A stretch of 12,985 bases of DNA from a virus (taxonomy: Duplodnaviria; Heunggongvirae; Uroviricota; Caudoviricetes), in the IMG/VR virus record IMGVR_UViG_2537561857_000027; one strand, written 5' to 3'. Shown here piece after piece: positions 1-12,985 of this stretch. Positions within the stretch are counted from its first letter, which is position 1. Every line of letters begins with the position of its first letter. Position numbers and translations under genes: made by a program. A model generated the notes under the pieces. That model was not told the DNA's origin. It searched no databases and worked only from the letters and a program-made list of their open reading frames with translations.

Positions 1-393
1 TTATGCCGTCACTGAATCGCGCTCAACATACCGATCCATCTCCAGCCGAACATCCAGCATCATCAGCATTCCTTCAATAACACCTTCAGCTTTTTGCAGC
101 CGCTTTCCGATAGTCCCATCAGAGCATTCATGTTTTTGCGCCAGTGACATAAACGTCATCCCCCGCACGTAGTAATCAACCAGCAACTCATGCAGATCGC
201 GATTGTTCCGGTAAAGGCGGGCTATGCACCCGCATATCACCATCGCATCATCGTCACAGCACTGTGGGCGTGATGTTATCTTTGCCGGAATAATCCCCTT
301 AAATCCTGCGGCAACGGATGACCAGGTCACATTCTCGCGATTATTTGCCGCCCACGCTCCCCTGCGTTCCAGAACCTGCTGAATATCACGCAT
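1..393 (-). CDS. Phage antitermination protein Q-like (QuuD-like), about 130 aa
   Basis: ORF-track frame 1..399 with stop at 1-3. The track's first codon is TTG; the first ATG is at 393-391, preceded by GAGG 9 nt upstream. The product [18 protein letters not shown]...CCDDDAM...[18 protein letters not shown]...[15 protein letters not shown] matches, from memory, the DLP12 QuuD / Q antiterminator family. Identification is by recall, not search. Confidence 0.6.
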
Positions 394-461
394 CAACAAT
401 CGCCTCGTAATAGCTGTGGTTACATACCCGTAATTCGGAGATGCACTGGATGAAAGTTAAA

Positions 462-2045: not shown

Positions 2046-2069
2046 AACCGGGTTTATCCCGGCTTTTTT
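2046..2069 (+). terminator. Candidate plus-strand intrinsic terminator (CCGGG-ttta-CCCGG, then c + TTTTTT)
   Basis: 5-bp GC stem followed by a T6 run on the plus strand only. Its T-run overlaps the stop codon of the convergent minus-strand restriction gene. It implies plus-strand transcription in 1414-2040. Confidence 0.4.
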
Positions 2070-3144
2070 AATGTTTGATGCATTTTTCCATGAAAGAATC
2101 TAAGAATTGATCGGTTATTCCTTGAGGCTTTCGGCGCTCACAAAGAGAATACAATTCTTCTACGGCAGAGTAAGGAAAAAATTTTGTGTCTAGCTCACGA
2201 AATTGTGGTCTATTTGCAAACTCAATTACTTTTTCTCTATATTCATCTGGAGCTACGATTGTCCATCGTATATCTTGCAGACGGGGAGCATAATCACAGA
2301 AGTTCTTCATACGTGCTAAACCCCTTATTATTCCGGTACTATGCTCGATCTCCATCACGGCAGGCATCAATTTACCATTTCTAAACCAGATGCAATCTAT
2401 CAATCTTGCGCCAGCAATGGCTTCGCTGTAGGAACTTAGGACTTTTTCATTAGACAGACTGTCAATGACACCATCCATTTGAGCGATTGCTTTACCATTG
2501 TATTTTAATCCTCGGTCATTAGCTGCAACCCATGTTCTGTATCCCAGATGATGACCGATTTTTACTAATGCTATCTGGATTTGTGCATGTCTTCTTGATT
2601 CTTCAATAGACATGCCTTCAATTGGACGGATTGTTTCTGAATCAACACTTTGGTATACAACTTCTGTGTTCATCTCTGATATTACAATATTAGTTTTGTA
2701 TTCAGAAAGCTTGCCGTTTTCATGTGGTAAATTCGGTAAGTATATAAGATGCTTGTGGCCTTTTTTAATCGTCTGTTTCGTATTAATAACCTCTAAGCGG
2801 TCGAGTTTACACCAATAAAATTGAGGTGTATGAGCAAGCAAACTTTCAATAACTGAACGAGAGTTATAGCTTGCACCGAATACTCTATCTAAATTGATAG
2901 GCGCATCCTCTTGAATTGCGTTAGCCAAACGCCATAGCATTTGGCTAGATATGCTATCAACTTTGGCATCTCTGAGCGTTTCACCTTTGGTTGGATTGAA
3001 ACGTTTAAAGCGTATTGGGCCTTCTGGTAACTTAATCGAGTCGATAACAATCTTCCCGGCATTACTTTCATTCACATAATCAAACTGCCTGTTTTTGGGT
3101 AGATTTGCTATCGCATTCACAAGATTCATTGCTGTTAAATTCAT
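2068..3144 (-). CDS. Putative Type II restriction endonuclease partner of the adjacent methyltransferase (358 aa); nuclease family not recognisable
   Basis: Long ORF directly downstream of, and overlapping by 65 nt, the C5-methyltransferase gene on the same strand. ATG at 3144 has GGGA 6 nt upstream. The C-terminal region has a possible PD-(D/E)xK-like arrangement (...ARLIDCIWF...PAVMEIEHS...), which is a weak call. The restriction function is inferred from operon context. Confidence 0.5.
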   Translation of the reverse strand: MNLTAMNLVNAIANLPKNRQFDYVNESNAGKIVIDSIKLPEGPIRFKRFNPTKGETLRDAKVDSISSQMLWRLANAIQEDAPINLDRVFGASYNSRSVIESLLAHTPQFYWCKLDRLEVINTKQTIKKGHKHLIYLPNLPHENGKLSEYKTNIVISEMNTEVVYQSVDSETIRPIEGMSIEESRRHAQIQIALVKIGHHLGYRTWVAANDRGLKYNGKAIAQMDGVIDSLSNEKVLSSYSEAIAGARLIDCIWFRNGKLMPAVMEIEHSTGIIRGLARMKNFCDYAPRLQDIRWTIVAPDEYREKVIEFANRPQFRELDTKFFPYSAVEELYSLCERRKPQGITDQFLDSFMEKCIKH

Positions 3145-4219
3145 CTTTTATCCCTAAATGCTCTAATATGGATTTTGCTATGCCTAAAGCCGCAAGGTAA
3201 GGAACACCATTGCCAACAGTTTTAAACATATTTGAAAGAGTCATGTAAGATGGCAATTCGAATTCTTTCGGTAAAGACTGAATGGCAAGTGCTTCTGCAA
3301 CTGTTATTCTACGTGGCTTATATGGATGCAAATGTACTTCATTATTACCGTAAGCAGCTGTTGGAGAATATCTCCAGCGATGAAGACGCTTGTAAGATTT
3401 TTTGCTATCGTCCCCTTCAGCTACAGCTTTAAAGCGAACTAACCCAGCCCTAGCAGTAAACACATGTTTTGCGTTCACATGTTCAGAAACTTTGTTTTTC
3501 CTAAACCAGTAGTCAACAGTTAACTCTTCAGGAAGTGACTCAGGCATTGCCAGTGTTGAGTTCTCAACAAATTCATTCGTAGTTGGCCAATTATGTTCAA
3601 AAGCACTACTATCTGGGTATAATCTTCCACTCCAGTTAAAGATCTTGGTTAGACTTTTATTTTGGAAACCCAACAGAATAATGCGTTCACGGTCTTGCGG
3701 GACTCCGTATTCAATCGAATTTATTAACCTTTCATGAAGGATGTAACCAACGTCCATTAACTGTTTTTTGAGATGCTCAAAAAACTCACGGTGTTTGAGC
3801 GTGCGATAAAGACCTTTGACGTTCTCGAACAAAAAGAAGTCAGGCTTCATCTCAACAATTATATTGATGTAACTTTGAGACAGCTTACCGTTCTCTCCAT
3901 CGCGACCTTTGTTCTTACCTGCAACGGAGAAATCAGGGCACGGTGGGCCACCGATGAAGCCAATTAGTCTTTTTTCTTTCTTGAGAGCTTTAATATTATC
4001 TTTCAACTTATTGTGATCAACTTCCTCGATGCTCTCTTCTGCATATCCAAAACGTGGGATAGGTTTGTTCATCACCGCTCGTGAGTGCTTGTAAGCATCC
4101 ATAAATGGTGGGTGAAATTCATTCACAAAAACCACCTCGTAGCCTGAGTTTTCGAAGCCAAGATCTAGAAAACCTGAGCCGGAAAAGAAAGAGAAGATGG
4201 CGGGTTTAAGTGTGGACAT
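3080..4219 (-). CDS. DNA (cytosine-5)-methyltransferase, Type II R-M modification subunit (379 aa)
   Basis: Canonical m5C-MTase motifs in the correct order: I FSGSGF (FxGxG), IV GGPPCPDFS (catalytic Pro-Cys), VI ENVKGL, VIII QDRERIILLGF, IX RRITVAEALAIQSLP, X GNGVPY. A variable region of about 130 aa lies between VIII and IX. Start ATG at 4219. Confidence 0.9.
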   Translation of the reverse strand: MSTLKPAIFSFFSGSGFLDLGFENSGYEVVFVNEFHPPFMDAYKHSRAVMNKPIPRFGYAEESIEEVDHNKLKDNIKALKKEKRLIGFIGGPPCPDFSVAGKNKGRDGENGKLSQSYINIIVEMKPDFFLFENVKGLYRTLKHREFFEHLKKQLMDVGYILHERLINSIEYGVPQDRERIILLGFQNKSLTKIFNWSGRLYPDSSAFEHNWPTTNEFVENSTLAMPESLPEELTVDYWFRKNKVSEHVNAKHVFTARAGLVRFKAVAEGDDSKKSYKRLHRWRYSPTAAYGNNEVHLHPYKPRRITVAEALAIQSLPKEFELPSYMTLSNMFKTVGNGVPYLAALGIAKSILEHLGIKDEFNSNESCECDSKSTQKQAV

Positions 4220-4248
4220 TTTTTACCTATCGGTGATCGTTGAGTCAT

Positions 4249-4285
4249 GCAAAAACGCCCCTGCATCTTACCAGATGAAAGGGGC
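4249..4285 (-). terminator. Minus-strand intrinsic terminator between ssb and the R-M operon (GCCCCT...AGGGGC stem with inner CATC/GATG pairing, then T-run)
   Basis: Plus-strand 4257-4262 GCCCCT pairs with 4280-4285 AGGGGC; the plus-strand A5 at 4251-4255 is the U-tract after the hairpin on the minus transcript. Confidence 0.5.
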
Positions 4286-4292
4286 ATTGCAA
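4265..4292 (-). promoter_or_regulatory. Candidate sigma70 promoter for the R-M operon: -35 TTGCAA (4292-4287), 16-nt spacer, -10 TAAGAT (4270-4265)
   Basis: Hexamers read on the minus strand. The -10 lies in the loop of the upstream terminator hairpin, so cassette transcripts would start inside or after the hairpin while read-through from ssb is terminated. Confidence 0.4.
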
Positions 4293-4367
4293 CGGGATTG
4301 CAGGCTCTTGTAAAGGTCGTCCGTTGTCATTTTTATGGATATAGTCTTTAATCAACGTGTTCACCTC

Positions 4368-4430
4368 CTATGATGTGTTTAAGGTTGCTTGAATTACCTC
4401 TGTTGGTGAACGGTCGGTCTGCTGGTTCAT
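4368..4430 (-). pseudogene. Truncated duplicate (20 codons, MNQQTDRSPTEVIQATLNTS) of the 5' end of the 57-aa gene at 1240-1413
   Basis: Shares the 30-bp repeat and the peptide TDRSPTEVI with the full-length gene, then diverges to a stop at 4368-4370. Its ATG lies 13 nt after the ssb stop. Confidence 0.5.
4390..4419. repeat. 30-bp perfect direct repeat, copy 2; partner at 1382-1411
   Basis: Exact identity to 1382-1411. Confidence 0.9.
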
Positions 4431-4443
4431 GTTGTGCTGTCAT

Positions 4444-4893
4444 TCAGAACGGAATATCGTCAGAGAACGGGTCATCACCTCCCGCTGGTGGCTGATTTCC
4501 CTGCTGTCCGGTCTGTCGTTTTGCTCTTTCCAGTGCTTCAGTCGCCTTCCCCTGTTGCCCCCGCTTCCCGCCAGGGCGCACCGAACGGGCACTGATTACG
4601 CTGTCAGCGATAACCTGCCAGCCCTGCCGTGTTTCCCCGTTCTGTCCGGTCCACTGGCTGATCTGCATGTTACCCGCCACGCTGATAAGGTCGCCTTTTT
4701 CATGTCTCGCCAGCGCGTCGGCCTGCTTACCAAATGCCAGGACTGATAGCCATAACGTCGCCTGTCCGTCCTGTGCCTGACTGCATGGCAGTGATACCGC
4801 CATACGCGCCAGCGTCATCGGTGTGCCCTTGCTGGTCTGTTTTACCTGCGGGTCGTCCACCAGCCGCCCGTAAGCTGCAATCTGTGCTGTCAT
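4444..4893 (-). CDS. ssb: Single-stranded DNA-binding protein (SSB), 149 aa
   Basis: Gly/Gln/Pro-rich linker and the hallmark acidic C-terminal tail ...GGDDPFSDDIPF (E. coli SSB ends DDDIPF). AAGGAG lies 8 nt upstream of the ATG. Start overlaps the stop of the upstream gene (ATGA). Confidence 0.85.
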   Translation of the reverse strand: MTAQIAAYGRLVDDPQVKQTSKGTPMTLARMAVSLPCSQAQDGQATLWLSVLAFGKQADALARHEKGDLISVAGNMQISQWTGQNGETRQGWQVIADSVISARSVRPGGKRGQQGKATEALERAKRQTGQQGNQPPAGGDDPFSDDIPF

Positions 4894-5306
4894 GGTCTGC
4901 GCTCCTTGTTCCGGTACTCCTGGATAATCCCCATTGTCATATCGAATAAATCACATGCCGCTTTTTCTGCATCTTCCGCTTTCAGGTCATACAGCGTCAT
5001 GAAATGGTGAGCGATTGCCCGTGCGGATCTTTTGCTGTTTGCTGAATATTTCTCATAGATTTTTTCTGCCCGCTCTTCAATATCCCGCCGGAACTCTTCA
5101 CGTTCAAACAGGTCACGGTGTATCAACATCAGCGAATCATTCAGCCATGTCACATCGGCGTATACCGTTCGCTTCCAGACAATCAGGATCGGGATATGTT
5201 TTTCATCGCAGTGATGCAGATGTTCGTCAGGTATATAAAGCGTGGCTCTGCCTCGTACCGATACGAACCTCACAACAGATTCCGTTTCACTTGTTTTTTT
5301 GATCAT
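4890..5306 (-). CDS. Hypothetical protein, 138 aa, translationally coupled to ssb
   Basis: The track ORF 4890..5435 runs back into the origin iterons, giving an RRLRQLRQLRRLRR artefact. The internal ATG at 5306 has a strong SD (AAGGAG, 7-nt spacer), so the start is placed there. Confidence 0.6.
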   Translation of the reverse strand: MIKKTSETESVVRFVSVRGRATLYIPDEHLHHCDEKHIPILIVWKRTVYADVTWLNDSLMLIHRDLFEREEFRRDIEERAEKIYEKYSANSKRSARAIAHHFMTLYDLKAEDAEKAACDLFDMTMGIIQEYRNKERRP

Positions 5307-5367
5307 GAATCGTCTCCTTCCAGGCATCACATCATTCACACGCTTTATATATATAGGAAAAACGTGT

Positions 5368-5683
5368 CGCCTCAGTCGCCTCAGTTGCCTCAGTTGCCTC
5401 AAACGTCTTAACGTATTGATTTGATTAATAATCACAAAAAAATTGAGGCGACATCATGTCGATTTGAGGCAACAATAGGGGGTATTTGAGGCAACATCAC
5501 GTTGGTTCCGTTCAGACAAACAAAACCTGTCAGCCGTGTTGCCTCAAAATGGGCAGTTGTTGCCTCAAAATGGGTAATTGTTGCCTCAAAATGAGCAATT
5601 GTTGCCTCAGTAAAAACAGAAATAAAACATATAAATCAATCACATATATATATTTATTACTGTTTGAGGCAACTGAGGCAACA
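5368..5683. repeat. Iteron-type replication origin: at least 13 copies of the 9-mer GTTGCCTCA / TGAGGCAAC in both orientations, plus an AT-rich stretch (5611-5662)
   Basis: Four tandem 9-mers at 5368-5403; three inverted copies at 5444-5496; four copies at exact 21-bp spacing (5539, 5560, 5581, 5602); two inverted copies at 5666-5683. The array lies immediately downstream of the replication protein gene. Confidence 0.8.
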
Positions 5684-5707
5684 TTTTTTCATCTTATATA
5701 CGCGTAG

Positions 5708-7846
5708 TTAATCGCTTCCCTCCTCATCGTGATTAGCGAACAACATCCCGTAGGCCCATAATTGCGCTCCATTAAGGTTCTTAAGGCGTGGGGTCTTGAT
5801 TTTCCATCCTCTCCCGCTCTCTGGTCGTTTCAGCATTCCAGCTTCGTGGAGTATTTTTGCAACGGTATCCTTGTTGAAGCCTTCCGCTACTTTCGATTTA
5901 AACGGCTCCGATAATACGTAAAACAACAATGGTTCATCGTAACGGCTTCCCGAATCCCTGTAGCCGTACAGCTCAGAAATCGGCAGGCTGGCTGGGTCAT
6001 AATCAACGGGCGCAAAACGGCTCATGCCGTAGGCAGCAAGAAACGCCTCTGCCTGCTCAATGATCTGTTTGTGTTCCTTGTTGCCCGTGCCAAATTCTTT
6101 TACCCAGGCATTAAATACATACTGAATTGCATCGCGGCATTCCTGCACGGACCAGCCAGTTACATGACCGGAAAGCACAAGCGCGGCCTCCAGTATGGAG
6201 AAACGTTCACCCACGCGGTGGACCTGCTCACCGTAATTGTCTGGAATGATATTTCGCCAGCGTGCACGGCTCTCTCTAACCGCGTCCTTAGCTTCCTGCT
6301 GGTTCTCCGCAAGCCATTTAATCCACTCACGCCCCGCTGCGCCGTGGTTTTCTTGCCATGCCGCCTTCAATGCGTCAGCGTGATCCTTTCCGTTGCTGTA
6401 TTCGTGTAACTGCGTGGCTTTTTGAATCGGGATATTGAGCAGGCGCACAAGTTGCCCGACCTTAACTTTTATCCCCGACGTTTTGAGGTATGTTTCGATA
6501 TCCACCTCTCCGGTGCTGATAGCAACGGTCCGCCAGTTTTTCAGCTCTCTGTTGCCGCCGTCCTTTGCCCCCTGTAATTTTCCGAATCCATTGAACAAAG
6601 TGTATGAGGATACGTACACGTCACGGGGGCTTCCTGCCTGCCCTATCTCGTCCAGTGGAAGGAGTCCGTGATTGTGTGCTTCTGCTTCGTTAGCTATCCC
6701 CAGCGCCGTTCCGTACCAGGTTAATCGCAGCGCCTCAGGATCGCCCCACAAGCTCGACGCGATGCTCTGCGTTGTGGTCTTGCCTGCTGTGGATTGCTCG
6801 AAAAAATGCACGCCAAAACCATCAGCGCCTGTCAGCCCGACTAATGGCGCGGATAATGACGTCGCTATACCCAGCATCATGAACGGATTGCCACCAGCCA
6901 GCCGCGCCACGCTGTCGCGCCAGCTTTCCGCCGTTCCTGCCACGGAATAACCGTTAATCGCGGCACTTTTTCCGGTAAACAAAACGGGCTTGTCAGATTC
7001 GCCGATAACCGTACCGTCCGGCATGATGTACGCGCCAAAATGCCAGCCAGCCTTCGGGCTTAAGTGCCATTCCTCATGCTGTCCGCCTAACTGCATCCAG
7101 TCAGCCAGGGGGATCCTGTGTTTTCCGTTTGTCGTGACTTTAAGCCCGTTGGCTTTCAGTAATCGCCAGCCGTCAGTGTCGCCTATTCCGCAGCAAGGCA
7201 CAGCCATAGTGACAAGCCGATTTGTTGTCGAATCTGTCCAGCGCATCACGCGGTAATGCTCGTTACCAATGACACCTGAACCGAGTAATTCAACGGAAGA
7301 ACACAGCCATTCGAACGGACGGATAATTTCGCCAGATTGCTTATCAACCTTTGGCGTCACCCAGTAAACGCCATCAGGACGGCATTCAACGCGGGGTTTT
7401 AATTCGTCATCATAATTTCCGGTGAAATTTGTCTTTGCCGGAAGATTGATCACCAGGCAGTTGCCGCGTTCCGCATCATCCTTCAGTCCAGCCATGCGCG
7501 GTGTCCAGTCCTCCGGCTGCTGGTCAACAAAGCCGCTGTAGCAGCGTGCCTCCTTTACACCCGCCACCGCAAGCAGTGTTGCTATCTGTAAAAGTGCTGT
7601 CTCTGATATTTCACCAGCACGATAAACGCGCACGTAATTGCGCCCTTTATCGATGATTTTCGTGTCTTCCAGGCTCGCCAGTTGTTTCGGTCCAAGAATA
7701 ACGGGCGGTGTATCATCTGCTGCAATATGCTTTCCGGCCCATTCGCTCCACTCTTTCGCATGTGCCCAGGCATCACTACCCGCAAAGATAATGACTTCGG
7801 TCATTTTGTCTTTCGGCTGTTTTTTTAAATTCGGTGCGCTTTTCAT
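5708..7846 (-). CDS. Satellite replication initiator, primase/helicase-like (pri-rep), 712 aa
   Basis: Large ORF adjacent to the iteron array. N-terminal region (MTEVIIFAGSDAWAHAKEW...) resembles Toprim/primase-type domains; the central region has a P-loop-like GKT segment (EQSTAGKTTTQS). The domain call is from pattern memory only. Start ATG overlaps the stop of the upstream gene (ATGA). Confidence 0.75.
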   Translation of the reverse strand: MKSAPNLKKQPKDKMTEVIIFAGSDAWAHAKEWSEWAGKHIAADDTPPVILGPKQLASLEDTKIIDKGRNYVRVYRAGEISETALLQIATLLAVAGVKEARCYSGFVDQQPEDWTPRMAGLKDDAERGNCLVINLPAKTNFTGNYDDELKPRVECRPDGVYWVTPKVDKQSGEIIRPFEWLCSSVELLGSGVIGNEHYRVMRWTDSTTNRLVTMAVPCCGIGDTDGWRLLKANGLKVTTNGKHRIPLADWMQLGGQHEEWHLSPKAGWHFGAYIMPDGTVIGESDKPVLFTGKSAAINGYSVAGTAESWRDSVARLAGGNPFMMLGIATSLSAPLVGLTGADGFGVHFFEQSTAGKTTTQSIASSLWGDPEALRLTWYGTALGIANEAEAHNHGLLPLDEIGQAGSPRDVYVSSYTLFNGFGKLQGAKDGGNRELKNWRTVAISTGEVDIETYLKTSGIKVKVGQLVRLLNIPIQKATQLHEYSNGKDHADALKAAWQENHGAAGREWIKWLAENQQEAKDAVRESRARWRNIIPDNYGEQVHRVGERFSILEAALVLSGHVTGWSVQECRDAIQYVFNAWVKEFGTGNKEHKQIIEQAEAFLAAYGMSRFAPVDYDPASLPISELYGYRDSGSRYDEPLLFYVLSEPFKSKVAEGFNKDTVAKILHEAGMLKRPESGRGWKIKTPRLKNLNGAQLWAYGMLFANHDEEGSD

Positions 7847-8142
7847 TTCTTGCCCCTGAATGCGTTAATCATGTTTTTCATCTTTCGGATGTTCGCCTCT
7901 GCTTTTGCGTTGCTGGCTGGCTTACCGCGCGGCACGGACTGCACCAGAGAAAAATCACGCGCGAACTGATACAGTGGCATTACGCAGTCATAGTCATAGC
8001 CTTCACGGCGGTAGGCGATACGGCGTTCTCTCACGCTGATAATTGTCACGATGCCGCCGTACTTATCGCGGTAAATATCCCCGCGCATAAATTCAGGTTG
8101 AGCTTTGCCACTGGCAGTTAAGCCAGAATTTTTTGATGTCAT
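7843..8142 (-). CDS. Hypothetical protein, 99 aa, translationally coupled to pri-rep
   Basis: ATG at 8142 with GGAGA 8 nt upstream; stop overlaps the pri-rep start. Confidence 0.6.
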   Translation of the reverse strand: MTSKNSGLTASGKAQPEFMRGDIYRDKYGGIVTIISVRERRIAYRREGYDYDCVMPLYQFARDFSLVQSVPRGKPASNAKAEANIRKMKNMINAFRGKK

Positions 8143-8390: not shown

Positions 8391-8575
8391 TACTGCACCC
8401 CCTTAATTTCATGAACGGCGTGGATAATTACGCCGGATAAACCGGCTTTAGCTGATTTGTTAATTACTGTGCTGATTGCAGCCTGGACGTTTTCGGCCTT
8501 CACGTTCTGCGTGATGCCAACGGTATAGCCGCGTGCATTAACGGCACGGGAAAAAACACGGAAGGTTTTAAGCAT
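8390..8575 (-). CDS. Hypothetical protein, 61 aa
   Basis: Strong SD: GGAGG with 6-nt spacer before the ATG at 8575. Confidence 0.55.
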   Translation of the reverse strand: MLKTFRVFSRAVNARGYTVGITQNVKAENVQAAISTVINKSAKAGLSGVIIHAVHEIKGVQ

Positions 8576-8738
8576 GAGTCACCTCCTGACGGATACGGGC
8601 GACAAAAATCAGATGTGCGTGCGGCAGCTGCGCGCGTGCTTCGCGCTCAGTGGCAGCGGTAACGGTGAATATTGCAATGCTACCTGTCAGGCACTGCATA
8701 AAGCGCCAGACAAAGTAAGGGCGTGCGGATACAGCCAT
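8568..8738 (-). CDS. Hypothetical small protein, 56 aa, with a hydrophobic core (LTGSIAIFTVTAAT); proposed real 3' part of the 504-aa track ORF
   Basis: Internal ATG at 8738 is preceded by GAGGAG with an 8-nt spacer, and codon usage improves from here to the stop. Its end overlaps the start of the next gene by 8 nt. Start assignment is by inference. Confidence 0.35.
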   Translation of the reverse strand: MAVSARPYFVWRFMQCLTGSIAIFTVTAATEREARAQLPHAHLIFVARIRQEVTHA

Positions 8739-8903
8739 GTGAAAGGCTCCTCTGACTTTGGGATTATACCCACCGCCGGAGGTGGTAAGCTCGCTGGCGG
8801 TGGACTGTACAGGGTTACCACAACTGGCGTTAGAGGAAACCAGCCCGACCGAAGTCGGCCCCATACAGCCCACCATTGTTGAGGTGTGCGTGTGCGCCGA
8901 TAC

Positions 8904-8924
8904 AAAAAAAGACGCTGGCGCGTC
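8904..8924 (-). terminator. Minus-strand intrinsic terminator (GACGC-tggc-GCGTC followed by T7 on the minus transcript)
   Basis: Plus-strand A7 at 8904-8910 precedes the hairpin at 8911-8924; an outer CGATACA/TGTATCG stem (8897-8903 with 8926-8932) encloses it. Confidence 0.5.
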
Positions 8925-9207
8925 GTGTATCGCCTCTAACTCCAGCGGGGTGGTAATCCCGATCCCCGTTTTATAAGGGATAGCCTCAGTATATGCCGCT
9001 TTTTTGCTTAAGTGGTCGGATGTGTTGCGAGAGAAGTTTGTGCGAAAAATACCTGCGTTTTCTTTGAAAGCACATAATAACATCACGTTATTTATGTTTA
9101 TGCAGTGTGTCGCAAAGCGACCTGAATCATCACGCAAATTACAACCATAAAAAATACCTGCGCTGTGATATGAGGTACTACAGCGCACCGCTTTACGGGT
9201 ACAGACA

Positions 9208-9387
9208 ATGACAAATGAAGAACTACAGGAAATCGCATTATCCATACTTGAGCGACAGCGCGAAAAAGTACGCCTGGAACGCGAGTCTTTGCTTAATCCC
9301 TCTCCTCTCACCAGACCAAAACGATTTGCGCTTGAGGCATTTCTGGACAAATACCCACGGCGATTAATCTCGCCTAAAAACCGATAG
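9208..9387 (+). CDS. Small basic/helical protein A, 59 aa (MTNEELQEIALSILERQREKVRLERESLLNPSPLTRPKRFALEAFLDKYPRRLISPKNR)
   Basis: Hand translation; below the track cut-off. Shares a C-terminal motif K(R/K)FALE(A/E)FL(D/R)KYPRRL...KNR with ORF B, and a similar 45-nt upstream region. Composition is protein-like. The coding strand is not proven (see findings). Confidence 0.4.
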   Translation: MTNEELQEIALSILERQREKVRLERESLLNPSPLTRPKRFALEAFLDKYPRRLISPKNR

Positions 9388-9483
9388 CGATCCGCTTTTG
9401 CTTCTCTGACTCCATAAAACGAATAACAACCATCAGCGCCGTGGTGTGAGGTGCTGCGTCGCTCCGCTGTACAGGAAATAAGT

Positions 9484-9762
9484 ATGGATTTACCACCAGA
9501 AGATGAGAAATTTTTACGACAACTACAACACCAACTACTCATGGATGCCATTGTCGAGCAGCAAACAGGGAGCAGCCCCATTGATTCATCGCTGAATAAA
9601 AAGGCCGCTTCCCGTTTTATTGAAAACAGGATAAGACGAGGAAAAACATGTGACGACGAGTCAAAGGCATCGCATACAAGAGATAAAAAATTTGCACTTG
9701 AAGAGTTTCTCAGGAAATACCCACGGCGGCTAAAAGCAACCAAAAATCGCCCGCCAGGCTGA
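9484..9762 (+). CDS. Small protein B, 92 aa, paralogue of protein A
   Basis: The track ORF 9451..9762 begins at GTG; the ATG at 9484 has AGGAA 6 nt upstream. C-terminal motif shared with protein A. Confidence 0.45.
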   Translation: MDLPPEDEKFLRQLQHQLLMDAIVEQQTGSSPIDSSLNKKAASRFIENRIRRGKTCDDESKASHTRDKKFALEEFLRKYPRRLKATKNRPPG

Positions 9763-9765
9763 TAG

Positions 9766-10076
9766 CATTGTCCACCAGCCTCAGATATGGCATTGTGGAT
9801 AATGCGCTTGATTTCCTTTATCTCCACTGGCGACCCTTTCGTGGTCGCCTTTGTTTTGCCTGCCATTCCTGCATCATGCGGATATTCGCGCCGTACAGGG
9901 CCACCAGCGCGATAATTTGATAAAGCCTCCTTCTGATAATGCTTAACGTGTTTCATGCGCTCAGCGGCGAAATGGCTCACGATATGGCGCATGTAATCAG
10001 CATGGTTGATGCTCACCTGTGCGAACTTATCCGCAGTATCGATGTACAGGGCGGCAGCGTTGCGGATGTCAGGCAT
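9766..10076 (-). CDS. Hypothetical protein (MPDIRNAAALYIDTADKFAQVSINHADYMRHIVSHFAAERMKHVKHYQKEAL...); start well supported, 3' end unresolved
   Basis: ATG at 10076 with GGAG about 9 nt upstream; it overlaps the stop of the upstream 51-aa gene by 8 nt (ATGCCTGA). The first 50 or so codons use E. coli-preferred codons (ATC, CTG, CGC, AAC, TTC). The frame has no stop until 8568. The lower coordinate given here is arbitrary. Confidence 0.3.
9829..9858 (+). terminator. Plus-strand intrinsic terminator (GGCGACC-ctttcgt-GGTCGCC followed by TTTGTTTTG)
   Basis: Perfect 7-bp GC-rich stem followed by a T-rich tract, about 70 bp downstream of ORF B. Confidence 0.6.
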
Positions 10077-10224
10077 GTTCACGTTCTCCCAGGCGACGGA
10101 CCAGCCAGCGTTGGGCTAATTCGGTGAGACGTTCTTTACGTTCTGGCGTTGGCATATCCATATCCAGTAGCGCACAGTTACGGCTTTCCAGATACGCGAG
10201 CAACGCCAGTTGATCAGCGGTCAT
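10069..10224 (-). CDS. Hypothetical small protein, 51 aa (MTADQLALLAYLESRNCALLDMDMPTPERKERLTELAQRWLVRRLGEREHA)
   Basis: Internal ATG at 10224 overlaps the stop of the Rha-family gene (ATGA); the track's longer 81-aa version would overlap that gene. Confidence 0.45.
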   Translation of the reverse strand: MTADQLALLAYLESRNCALLDMDMPTPERKERLTELAQRWLVRRLGEREHA

Positions 10225-10859
10225 ATGGTCACGAACTTTTTTTGATGGGATGCCGTTTTTTTGGCCCATACAGGCGGGTGCATCCCTAATACAAGGCGCG
10301 CAATGAAAGTACATTCGTTGTTATAAGCATGACCGTGTTGAGTATCTCCAGTGCGCTCAATGTATCCCTTCATGGCATCCCCCATAGAGCGCATCTCAGC
10401 TTTGGCCTCACATCTCTCTGCTATCCAGTTAGCCATGCGGTTAAACTGCGCAATGTATGCCTCTTTGAATGCAGCCGCTTTTTTTCCGGTAAATCCCATT
10501 GTTAAAAACACGAAGCCGTCTTTGGTGACTTCGTAGGCTTTCAATACGCGCCCCTTATGCTCAAATTTTACCCGCCGAAAATTGCGGGTTAAAAATTCAG
10601 CAGAACAACACAGGTTTTCAATCCGGTTAACAACCTTATCGTGATCCTTTCTGAAAAATCGGGCGATAGCCTGTGAAGTGGTTACAGGCTCACCGCCAGA
10701 AGGAAACACTTCCGGCGCGGTGAGTGCATTTTTATTTATTCCGTCAGCAATAATCTCATTGCCGGAAATTACCGGAATAATTGCGGCGAAATACTGTTGG
10801 CTCAGTTCTTCGGGCTGAACGAAGCCCTGCCCCTGTACGAGCATATTCGGACGTTTCAT
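10221..10859 (-). CDS. Phage regulatory protein, Rha family (212 aa)
   Basis: Residues about 57-140 (TTSQAIARFFRKDHDKVVNRIENL...RVLKAYEVTKDGFVFLTMGFTGKKAAAFKEAYIAQFNRM) match the Rha-domain signature as I remember it. AGGAG lies 7 nt upstream of the ATG at 10859. Confidence 0.75.
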   Translation of the reverse strand: MKRPNMLVQGQGFVQPEELSQQYFAAIIPVISGNEIIADGINKNALTAPEVFPSGGEPVTTSQAIARFFRKDHDKVVNRIENLCCSAEFLTRNFRRVKFEHKGRVLKAYEVTKDGFVFLTMGFTGKKAAAFKEAYIAQFNRMANWIAERCEAKAEMRSMGDAMKGYIERTGDTQHGHAYNNECTFIARLVLGMHPPVWAKKTASHQKKFVTI

Positions 10860-10924
10860 TGAAAAACTCCTGCTATCGGATCAGGTTTAGTGCTGGGGGA
10901 GAATACCCCCCACCCAAAAGATTA

Positions 10925-11128
10925 TTACGCGGCGTTGTTGCGAGAAGCATCAATACGCTGGTTAATCCATTCGTCGACTTCACTTTCAATAAAAGCCACG
11001 GAGCGGGGACCAATTTTTACCGGTTTAGGGAAACGCCCCAGGCTGATCAGGCGATAAATCCATGCGCGACCATAACCAGTACGGCGCATAACTTCAGAAA
11101 GACGGATGAATGAATTGTTATTAGCCAT
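10925..11128 (-). CDS. alpA: AlpA-family transcriptional regulator / excisionase-like protein (67 aa)
   Basis: MANNNSFIRLSEVMRRTGYGRAWIYRLISLGRFPKPVKIGPRSVAFIESEVDEWI matches the AlpA/Vis-type helix-turn-helix signature. AAGGAG upstream. Position just downstream of the integrase is typical for P4/PICI satellites. Confidence 0.85.
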   Translation of the reverse strand: MANNNSFIRLSEVMRRTGYGRAWIYRLISLGRFPKPVKIGPRSVAFIESEVDEWINQRIDASRNNAA

Positions 11129-11770: not shown

Positions 11771-12985
11771 TTATGCACATACACCAAACTTGCCGTGCAC
11801 CACGTTACCGCCCTGTTCCAGTGAGTCCATATAGTCGGCGTACCACTGGAGCATCTCCCGCCGTCCGTCCAGATATTGCGCGTGATTGTATGTGCCACGG
11901 ATCGAGTTTTTATCGACGTGCGCCAGCTGCGTTTCTATCCATGCGGAGTTATACCCCTGCTCGTGCAAAATCGTACTCATGGTGTGCCGGAACCCATGAC
12001 CAGTAACACGCCCTGCATAACCAATACGACGAATAAGCACGTTCATCGCCATTTCACTCATCGGTTTACTGTGCTGTATTCGACCAGGGAAAATAAACGG
12101 ATACTGCCCCGTCATGTGTTTCAGTTGTTCCAGAATAGCAATCGCCTGTTCTGAAAGCGGCACGCAATGAGGACGGCGCATTTTCATTCGTTCTTTCGGC
12201 ACTTCCCACAGACGATTATCAAAATCAATCTCCTGCCACTCTGCCTGCCGTAATTCACCAGGGCGGAGTCCTGTAAGAATCAACAATCGCATACCCAGCT
12301 TGACGATCTGGCTTCCGGTGTACGTATTAAAAACGCGGAAAAACTCCGGTAGCTCATCAACTTTCAGATACGCGTAATGCTCTTTCTTGTGTGGTGCAAA
12401 TGCGCTTGCCAGATCAGGAGCGGGGTTATATTCAGCGCGTCCGGTAATTATTGCGTACCGGAACACTTCGCCACATCGCTGGCGAACCTTACGCAATTTT
12501 TCAGTTGCGCCACGGTCATTAAGACGGGATAGAACCGCGAGCAATTCCATCGGCTTAATCTCTGCGATGGGCCTACCTCCAATGTACGGAAAAACGTCTT
12601 TTTCAAACGTCTCTATCATTTCCTCTGCATATGAGGGAGACCATCGGTCCAGGCGTTTTTCATACCACTCACGGGCGATCGCCTCAAAGGTGTTACCGCA
12701 TTTGTTCGCCTGTTCTCGCTTTTGGGCCTTTCTGACCTCACTCGGATTAACTCCACCAGCGATAAGCCTTTTGGCCTCATCCCTTGCCGTCCTGGCATCA
12801 GAAAGGGACACCTCAGGATAAACACCCAGCGACAACATTTTGGGCTTGCCTGCAAACCTGTATCGCAATCGCCAGCCCTTCGAACCGTTCGGCTCAATGA
12901 GTAACGAAAGCCCGTTGCCGTCATTGAGTGTATAGGCTTTCTCTTTTGGCTTCGCGCGGCGGATAGCAAGGTCTGAAAGCAACAT
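11771..12985 (-). CDS. int: P4-type tyrosine integrase (404 aa), complete
   Basis: N-terminus MLLSDLAIRRAKPKEKAYTLNDGNGLSLLIEPNGSKGWRLRYRFAGKPKMLSLGVYPEVSLSDAR is the conserved P4-integrase N-terminal domain; C-terminus has the catalytic region (HGFRHT ... RGTYNHAQY). ATG is at 12985-12983, the window edge, so the attachment site lies beyond the window. Confidence 0.95.
   Translation of the reverse strand: MLLSDLAIRRAKPKEKAYTLNDGNGLSLLIEPNGSKGWRLRYRFAGKPKMLSLGVYPEVSLSDARTARDEAKRLIAGGVNPSEVRKAQKREQANKCGNTFEAIAREWYEKRLDRWSPSYAEEMIETFEKDVFPYIGGRPIAEIKPMELLAVLSRLNDRGATEKLRKVRQRCGEVFRYAIITGRAEYNPAPDLASAFAPHKKEHYAYLKVDELPEFFRVFNTYTGSQIVKLGMRLLILTGLRPGELRQAEWQEIDFDNRLWEVPKERMKMRRPHCVPLSEQAIAILEQLKHMTGQYPFIFPGRIQHSKPMSEMAMNVLIRRIGYAGRVTGHGFRHTMSTILHEQGYNSAWIETQLAHVDKNSIRGTYNHAQYLDGRREMLQWYADYMDSLEQGGNVVHGKFGVCA

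Follow-up and report, generated by a model that had tools for sequence, protein, structure and literature searches.

Gram-negative PICIs have been described by a common layout of int/alpA, pri/rep, an iteron ori and an AT-rich core (Fillol-Salom et al. 2018, PMC6092414), and a published survey places primase, DUF5906 and the single-stranded DNA-binding protein (SSB) in their replication category (PMC10111431). The ssb gene goes undiscussed in the main PICI papers searched, and the PICI literature consulted yielded no report of its function being tested. In the prototype EcCICFT073, which we recognize by location and gene content in the CFT073 island between roxA and pepT, and in capsid-forming PICIs of the EcCIEDL933 type, ssb directly follows the primase and the iteron ori and overlaps a small upstream gene by 4 nt. 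The stretch of viral DNA analyzed here (the window; 12,985 nt, IMG/VR record IMGVR_UViG_2537561857_000027) is arranged in the same way on both counts and has in common with these elements the architecture of int, alpA, an Icd/Ash zone, DUF4222 and primase. Its SSB is 79% identical at the protein level to that of EcCICFT073, and both proteins end in DDIPF, the linker of the window protein being 13 aa longer. The two arrangements differ on either side of ssb. The upstream partner in the EcCICFT073/EcCIEDL933-type islands is Y, a protein of 81-92 aa (phrog_1231), whereas that of the window is an unrelated 138-aa protein, here called X; downstream, those islands carry PerC and capsid/packaging genes, whereas the window carries a type II restriction-modification system and a Q-like antiterminator.

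Mobile elements of other kinds also carry an additional SSB, among them the F-type conjugative plasmids, in whose leading regions psiB and ardA flank an ssb gene encoding a protein with a host-like tail that is thought to supplement host SSB. Satellite DNA enters the cell as double-stranded DNA, unlike the single strand transferred by the plasmid. The island SSB scores 24.8 bits against the plasmid SSB model PRK13732, which has a cut-off of 265 bits, and psiB and ardA were not among the genes identified beside the island ssb. Classification as a plasmid leading-region SSB was rejected because of this score, the integrative-island context and the chromosomal location of 2,326 of the 2,328 places at which the lineage occurs. 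Satellite P4 resembles the window in its alpha-like primase-helicase, C4/CI-type RNA, Icd/Ash-type early region and integrase at one end, and P4-like elements share alpA with the window in addition to the alpha-like primase, int and the C4/CI RNA. To our knowledge P4 encodes no SSB and depends on that of the host, and its alpha-driven replication in vitro needs SSB and the Pol III holoenzyme. The core by which SatelliteFinder recognizes P4-like satellites comprises the sid, psu and delta genes (PMC10085698). None of these genes is among the window ORFs identified, and a P4-like assignment by this core was dropped for that reason.

Layout of the island and its presumed origin

The genes of the window are all co-directional on the minus strand, as judged from the ORF list and from Pfam, PHROG and PADLOC matches. 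The gene for a tyrosine integrase, int (11771-12985; ORF list and Pfam), and alpA (10925-11128; ORF list and Pfam) occupy one end, and they are followed by a Rha-type regulator (10221-10859, minus strand), a P4-type C4/CI immunity RNA (8793-8880; Rfam RF01695, 77.7 bits), DUF4222 (7843-8142, minus strand) and a DUF927 primase-helicase, a P4 alpha-like replication protein (5708-7846, minus strand; PF06048, 145 bits; phrog_1139 'DNA primase', E=4e-141), whose gene lies upstream of the presumed origin. Small ORFs share the region of the C4/CI immunity RNA. With int and alpA at one end, transcription in one direction and a primase followed by an iteron origin, the window shows the Gram-negative PICI layout. 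As part of the overall explanation that we favor, the host element is probably a PICI-type integrative satellite, carrying int, alpA, Rha, the C4/CI RNA, DUF4222, the DUF927 primase-helicase and ori.

The presumed origin is a cluster of iterons at 5366-5682, between the primase stop (5708) and the start of X (5306). The repeat GTTGCCTCA, with at most one mismatch, has 16 matches in the window, 13 of which fall in this interval; the chance expectation is 2.9 matches for the whole window, and a count of 16 was reached in 0 of 200 shuffles. The copies lie in both orientations and flank an AT-rich stretch, and the same arrangement of iterons and AT-rich DNA has been described for the origins of E. 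coli PICIs (PMC6092414). On this repeat analysis we presume that the cluster functions as the origin. A scan of 4150-5760 returned no sigma-70 consensus promoter, and a single weak terminator-like hairpin was seen within the iterons.

The large ORFs beyond ori encode X (4890-5306), SSB (4444-4893), a C5 DNA methyltransferase (3080-4219), a type II restriction enzyme (2068-3144) and a Q-like antiterminator (1-399), all on the minus strand; the two restriction-modification genes were recognized by Pfam and PADLOC, and the window ends inside the antiterminator gene. Small ORFs lie at 400-2068; the scan covered the large post-ori ORFs, among which neither capsid nor terS was found. The genomic copy closest to the window is a near-identical island in JNEC-KY203, in which int and Rha are frameshifted and one IS insertion is present.

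The position of ssb just after the origin of an int-alpA-pri island, and its translational coupling to the preceding gene, had both been foreseen in the original prediction and agree with what we find, and the coordinates first given for the two genes prove exact. The stop codon of X (TGA) and the start codon of ssb (ATG) share the sequence ATGA at 4890-4893 on the minus strand, and by this overlap the two genes are read as translationally coupled. A Shine-Dalgarno sequence for ssb (AAGGAG, 4902-4907, minus strand) is placed 8 nt before the ATG and within the end of X, so that the junction reads ACCGGAACAAGGAGCGCAGACCATGA; an identical AAGGAG (5314-5319, minus strand) stands 7 nt before the ATG of X, in the sequence GGAAGGAGACGATTCATG.

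The satellite SSB and its distribution

The ssb gene (4444-4893, minus strand) encodes a 149-aa protein that belongs to the SSB family, with matches to PF00436 (E=4.8e-16, 59.1 bits against a cut-off of 26, residues 5-99), to TIGR00621 over its full length (68.2 bits against a cut-off of 53.95), to phrog_44 (E=3.7e-41) and to 24 solved SSB structures among the PDB sequences. It consists of an OB fold at approximately residues 1-100, a linker of about 40 aa and a C-terminal DDIPF tip. Presence of the OB fold and the tail in an alignment had been set as a test beforehand, and the alignment confirms both. The C-terminus ...DDPFSDDIPF aligns with ...MDFDDDIPF of E. coli SSB, and the canonical acidic tip that had been claimed for the protein is identical to that of the host.

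For these comparisons the host SSB was represented by the sequence matching PDB 1EQQ over its full length. The island protein resembles it in the OB fold, in the equivalents of the ssDNA-stacking aromatic residues Trp54, Phe60 and Trp88, in an intrinsically disordered linker and in the partner-binding DDIPF tip. It differs in an overall identity of 26%, in a linker of only about 40 aa, where E. coli SSB has about 65 aa, that is not rich in Gly, Gln or Pro, in its location on a mobile element and in two positions without an equivalent residue, the stacking residue Trp40 aligning with a shortened loop (LPCSQ) and His55, at the tetramer interface, with Leu. The D[DEN]IPF tip is retained in every aligned island SSB from E. 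coli and E. albertii, and it is degenerate in those from Klebsiella (DSIPL) and Pantoea (DEAGF). Identity to each SSB in 50,697 GenBank phage records is below 30%; taken with the 26% identity to the host protein, this points to a satellite lineage and not to a recent capture. Across genera, the dN/dS values of ssb (0.10-0.27) and of X (0.16-0.18) show that both genes are under purifying selection.

A DNA search with ssb covered 5,426 complete E. coli genomes and found the lineage in 1,784 of them, at 2,328 places in all and with up to six copies per genome. Islands were also sampled through the primase/DUF4222 gene and not through ssb, to avoid selecting on ssb; the 5' end and the DUF4222 junction of the primase query also match islands whose replication proteins differ. 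Ten E. coli primase matches spaced along the ranking were inspected, and in eight of them, the CFT073 island included, SSB directly follows the replication gene and origin; it is absent from the other two (L031 and L033). The replication proteins of the eight SSB-bearing islands are of the DUF927, TOPRIM-DUF927, 'DNA primase family'/P4-family and RepA-helicase types. Capsid-forming PICIs that have genes for capsid, portal and terminase carry the lineage too, as do islands embedded inside a prophage capsid gene and islands of Klebsiella, Pantoea and E. albertii. Among primase relatives outside E. coli, six loci were considered, too few for statistics, and one of them, on a 4-kb Sodalis contig, does not have the length needed for a verdict; SSB is missing from four of the five complete-length loci, and primase-related islands of Pseudomonas, Citrobacter and Symbiopectobacterium are without this SSB.

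In E. coli islands SSB is the rule and not an oddity, though it is no marker gene. The original prediction placed ssb outside the minimal satellite core, and in this it was correct, as SSB is not among the marker genes that define such satellites. Its view of a dedicated SSB as unusual does not survive the counts given above or the presence of the gene in EcCICFT073; universality of ssb in the satellite family, which it had named as evidence against itself, is largely what we observe for E. coli. RefSeq already annotates the gene, and the survey cited above counts SSB in the PICI replication module. In the explanation that we favor, SSB is the standard post-origin gene of enterobacterial PICIs, whatever the replication protein with which it occurs (DUF927, TOPRIM-DUF927, D5_N/DUF5906 or RepA-helicase).

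Protein X and the slot between ori and ssb

Protein X was correctly described at the outset as uncharacterized: profile searches return no Pfam, PHROGs, NCBIfam or PADLOC match, and it has no match among PDB sequences. A moderately confident AlphaFold2 model (mean pLDDT 78, pTM 0.72) contains three beta-hairpin-plus-helix units, and a Foldseek search with this fold gave no significant match, the best E values being 0.35 in PDB and 0.034 in BFVD. Close relatives number 18 in 5.8 billion clusters, the genera named for them including Escherichia, Salmonella and Pantoea, and tblastn finds a homologue in one Klebsiella record. An exhaustive profile search yields 53 distant relatives, most of them metagenomic proteins of about 115-130 aa with E of 1e-10 to 1e-3 and none in a named family. 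None of the 50,697 phage records contains X, and none was found in IMG/VR with the distant-homologue pattern. Within complete E. coli genomes (n=5,426), it occurs in 108, against 1,784 with the SSB lineage. The dN/dS of 0.16-0.18 was obtained against the Pantoea and Salmonella homologues and an E. coli homologue of about 50% identity (L012), and it marks X as a real gene.

The family conserves Cys33, Pro39, an ADVTW motif and a C-terminal AEKAACDLFDM helix; in the broader alignment Cys33, Pro39 and Ala117 are the only invariant residues. As no invariant residues of a catalytic type are present, X is probably a binding or adaptor protein, to judge from its conservation pattern. The distant relatives stand beside an exonuclease-like gene with a SNF2-type helicase, beside an ABC-3C defence system or beside unknown genes, and their contexts were dropped as a clue to function because they are heterogeneous and belong to unrelated operons. 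Two assignments to known classes were likewise set aside. The solved structures of RppC (6HLK, 6HN7) are those of a winged-HTH protein (PMC6739421), and X was rejected as an Rpp (redirecting phage packaging) protein since it matches no PDB entry in sequence or fold; neither X nor SSB is a known defence component by PADLOC match.

X lies upstream of the SSB lineage in every intact island in which it was found, and it does so behind four primase types, so that the conserved link is between X and SSB and not between X and the primase. It directly precedes ssb with the same 4-nt overlap in L001-L003 and in the Klebsiella locus (L013); a gap of 118 nt separates the two genes in Pantoea, and two small genes stand between them in L012. 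The SSB lineage usually occurs without X, and isolated copies of X are found in Salmonella remnants that have neither primase nor SSB. X is rare, is the only uncharted element of the module, and has its linkage to ssb as its single functional clue.

In most islands the gene that overlaps the ssb start is Y, in some the slot between ori and ssb holds no gene, and phrog_27268 is a third small family found in it. A relationship between X and Y was rejected, as all-against-all BLASTP similarity is limited to the N-terminal leader of 149-aa variants of X. In the L003-type variant approximately 18 N-terminal residues (MTEKHAKKSHSHAIDLTE) resemble the N-terminus of Y, 12 of 18 being identical to those of the Y copy in L037 (MTTKHAKKPQSHALDLTE), and DNA homology of the L003 type to the window stops near 5288, a short way into the 5' end of X. 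The Y-like leader and this stop suggest cassette exchange within a single ori-ssb slot, in which recombination put X in place of the body of Y. On the other side, homology with sister islands ends at about 4416, which is 28 nt beyond the ssb stop and inside the spacer at 4220-4443 that holds the module boundary. The window continues with its type II restriction-modification pair (2068-4219) as cargo, where sister islands have ProQ/FinO with PerC. With homology stopping on both sides, X-ssb is flanked by two recombination boundaries, and the ori-ssb slot is a small recombination hotspot with unnamed protein families, X included.

A proposed replication role and its alternatives

The analysis shows that the genes are real and establishes the SSB family membership, the tail, the genomic position, the distribution and the purifying selection; the role in replication, the recruitment of partners and any role of X are inferred. 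Our preferred reading, which we consider reasonably probable, is that the coupled X-ssb pair after the iteron origin provides a satellite-lineage SSB that serves as an auxiliary replication booster and recruits host partners. On induction of the island by a helper phage, the primase-helicase would open the origin and unwind the DNA, and the island SSB could then coat the single strands so exposed, just when demand on host SSB is heavy. The known partners of E. coli SSB include Pol III chi and PriA, and the conserved DDIPF tip may be able to recruit these and others to satellite forks. The SSB would act as an auxiliary booster and not as an essential replication gene, and X would belong to a set of small genes (X, Y/phrog_1231 and phrog_27268) that fill the variable ori-ssb slot. 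For X itself our best guess is an accessory role, directed at SSB or single-stranded DNA, or at a host or helper target.

Occurrence of the same SSB with different primase types argues for a generic replication role and not for a specific primase partnership. In EcCICFT073, rep and ori alone maintain a plasmid in DH5alpha (PMC6092414); this and the existence of islands without SSB indicate that the protein is dispensable for basic replication. The degenerate tips of the Klebsiella and Pantoea proteins weaken the partner-recruitment step, and the lack of conservation at Trp40 and His55 and the absence of SSB from two of the ten E. coli islands and from four of the five complete-length loci outside E. 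coli count against the booster view as a whole. For the part given to X, the unfavorable points are that the SSB is far commoner than X and that distant X relatives stand in unrelated operons. Two roles had originally been offered for the SSB, and of these the support of satellite replication is more likely than competition with host SSB for partner proteins.

The alternative that fares best, and which we nonetheless regard as unlikely, is that X, possibly with SSB, is anti-defence cargo, for example an inhibitor of immunity that senses foreign SSB, single-stranded DNA or replication intermediates. Such a function would suit a protein without enzyme-like invariant residues in a variable slot of small genes swapped by recombination, next to a region that is a cargo hotspot right after ssb and holds a restriction-modification system in the window. 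One distant relative of X stands directly upstream of the ABC-3C defence system and another upstream of the exonuclease-like gene and SNF2-type helicase, but these heterogeneous contexts are joined to X by weak homology (E 1e-5 to 1e-10). X also resembles no solved structure and has no PADLOC match, though PADLOC covers defence systems and not anti-defence proteins. The slot families would be worth study if they act on SSB or on SSB-sensing defences.

Next in standing, and also improbable, is the proposal, in line with the second of the roles originally offered, that the SSB is mainly a weapon or decoy whose tip titrates host SSB-interacting proteins, or which displaces host SSB from helper DNA; if this were true, helper replication would be impaired or resources biased to the satellite. 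Retention of a host-like DDIPF tip on so divergent a protein (26% identity to host SSB) fits this proposal, but a replication helper would need an intact tip just as much. The genes after a PICI origin are the usual place of interference functions (PMC6739421, PMC6092414). However, when post-ori genes of EcCICFT073 were expressed singly, only c1503/rppA cut lambda plaquing (PMC6739421), a result in which the inclusion of ssb is unconfirmed; the SSB with 79% identity to that of the window comes from that tested island.

We would give a slender chance to the idea that X, and perhaps also phrog_1231 and phrog_27268, are dedicated modulators of SSB biology, for example by loading the satellite SSB, by steering it to other targets, or by blocking the host or helper proteins that bind the SSB tip. 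If so, such modulators would be a previously unrecognized satellite route to replication resources or to evasion of SSB-sensing immunity. The satellite-specific SSB lineage, which is less than 30% identical to GenBank phage SSBs, occurs in roughly a third of the complete E. coli genomes.

That X-ssb is a decaying remnant carried by a defective island, with no current function, is very unlikely. The frameshifted integrase and Rha and the IS insertion in the near-identical JNEC-KY203 island, and the isolated X copies in Salmonella remnants without primase or SSB, would accord with decay. Both ORFs are nevertheless intact with strong ribosome-binding sites, dN/dS across genera is 0.1-0.27, and the SSB is held at the same position in thousands of islands. 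Least probable of all is a recombination module in which X is a small single-strand annealing protein with its cognate SSB, as in Sak4-SSB or Erf-SSB, for phage recombinases often adjoin a cognate SSB gene (PMC5499656) and X is tightly coupled to ssb, but X matches no Pfam/PHROG recombinase family and no recombinase fold, occurs in none of the 50,697 phage records, and most islands pair the SSB with Y or with no upstream partner.

The start of the 138-aa protein gene and its distant relatives

The gene encoding the 138-aa protein (4890-5306, minus strand) lies upstream of ssb, the position at which most islands carry phrog_1231, a protein of 81-92 aa whose gene overlaps the ssb start. In the 149-aa variants of the 138-aa protein, such as the one encoded at 10478-10927 in the sister island L003, the first ~18 residues match the N-terminus of phrog_1231; the site concerned in the window is ~5288-5306. 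This match suggests that the 138-aa protein took over the phrog_1231 body through recombination within the 5' end of the phrog_1231 gene. The start codon and ribosome-binding site of the 138-aa protein gene are enclosed between the arms of a perfect 13-nt inverted repeat (TATATAAAGCGTG at 5232-5244 and CACGCTTTATATA at 5339-5351), of which the sister islands L001 and L002 retain both arms and L003 is without the upstream arm. This repeat could form an mRNA structure controlling translation of the protein, or could be part of the origin.

Distant relatives occur in other gene neighborhoods. On a metagenomic contig (L022, 8001-12239), a 121-aa relative immediately precedes an ABC-3C system of three genes, which encode a CTD7 effector, MC3 and a DUF3732 ATPase. 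At a further locus (L004), another relative is followed by an exonuclease-like gene and a SNF2-type helicase.

Cargo and regulatory elements of the window

The cargo directly after ssb is a type II restriction-modification pair, a C5 methyltransferase and a restriction enzyme (2068-4219, minus strand; PADLOC REase_II, E=7e-124). In sister islands this point is occupied by ProQ/FinO and PerC genes, and homology with these islands breaks at ~4416, 28 nt past the ssb stop; this junction looks like a cargo hotspot.

At the window end, a Q-family antiterminator gene (1-399, minus strand) is cut by the boundary; Stx-converting phages carry a Q region with ~83-84% DNA identity to it. This similarity hints at regulatory cross-talk with late transcription of a lambdoid helper. 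An immunity RNA of the P4 CI / P1 C4 type was identified as a C4 antisense RNA at 8793-8880 (minus strand; Rfam RF01695, 77.7 bits, E=3.4e-14). The 504-aa ORF that encloses it (8568-10082, minus strand) has an odd composition and is labeled 'Icd-like protein' by RefSeq in a near-identical island, and is probably not a real gene across its full length.

Related islands in bacterial genomes

The closest genomic copy of the window island is L001 (NZ_AP045179.1), with 99.2% identity over a 1,451-nt query. Its int and Rha genes are frameshifted, IS421 is inserted between Rha and alpA, and this copy is probably immobile. A Klebsiella 'plasmid' record of 22.9 kb (NZ_CP033626.1) is made up of one such island alone, part of it duplicated, and encodes int, an alpA-like protein, primase, a homologue of the 138-aa protein, SSB, PerC and a tape-measure protein; this record may reflect a replicating form of the island, excised or concatemeric, or may have arisen as an artefact of assembly. 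Two further E. coli islands (L034 and L036), both with SSB, lie within a split major capsid gene of a prophage, with one of its two halves on each side, and are helper-embedded PICIs of the type described in PMC10111431.
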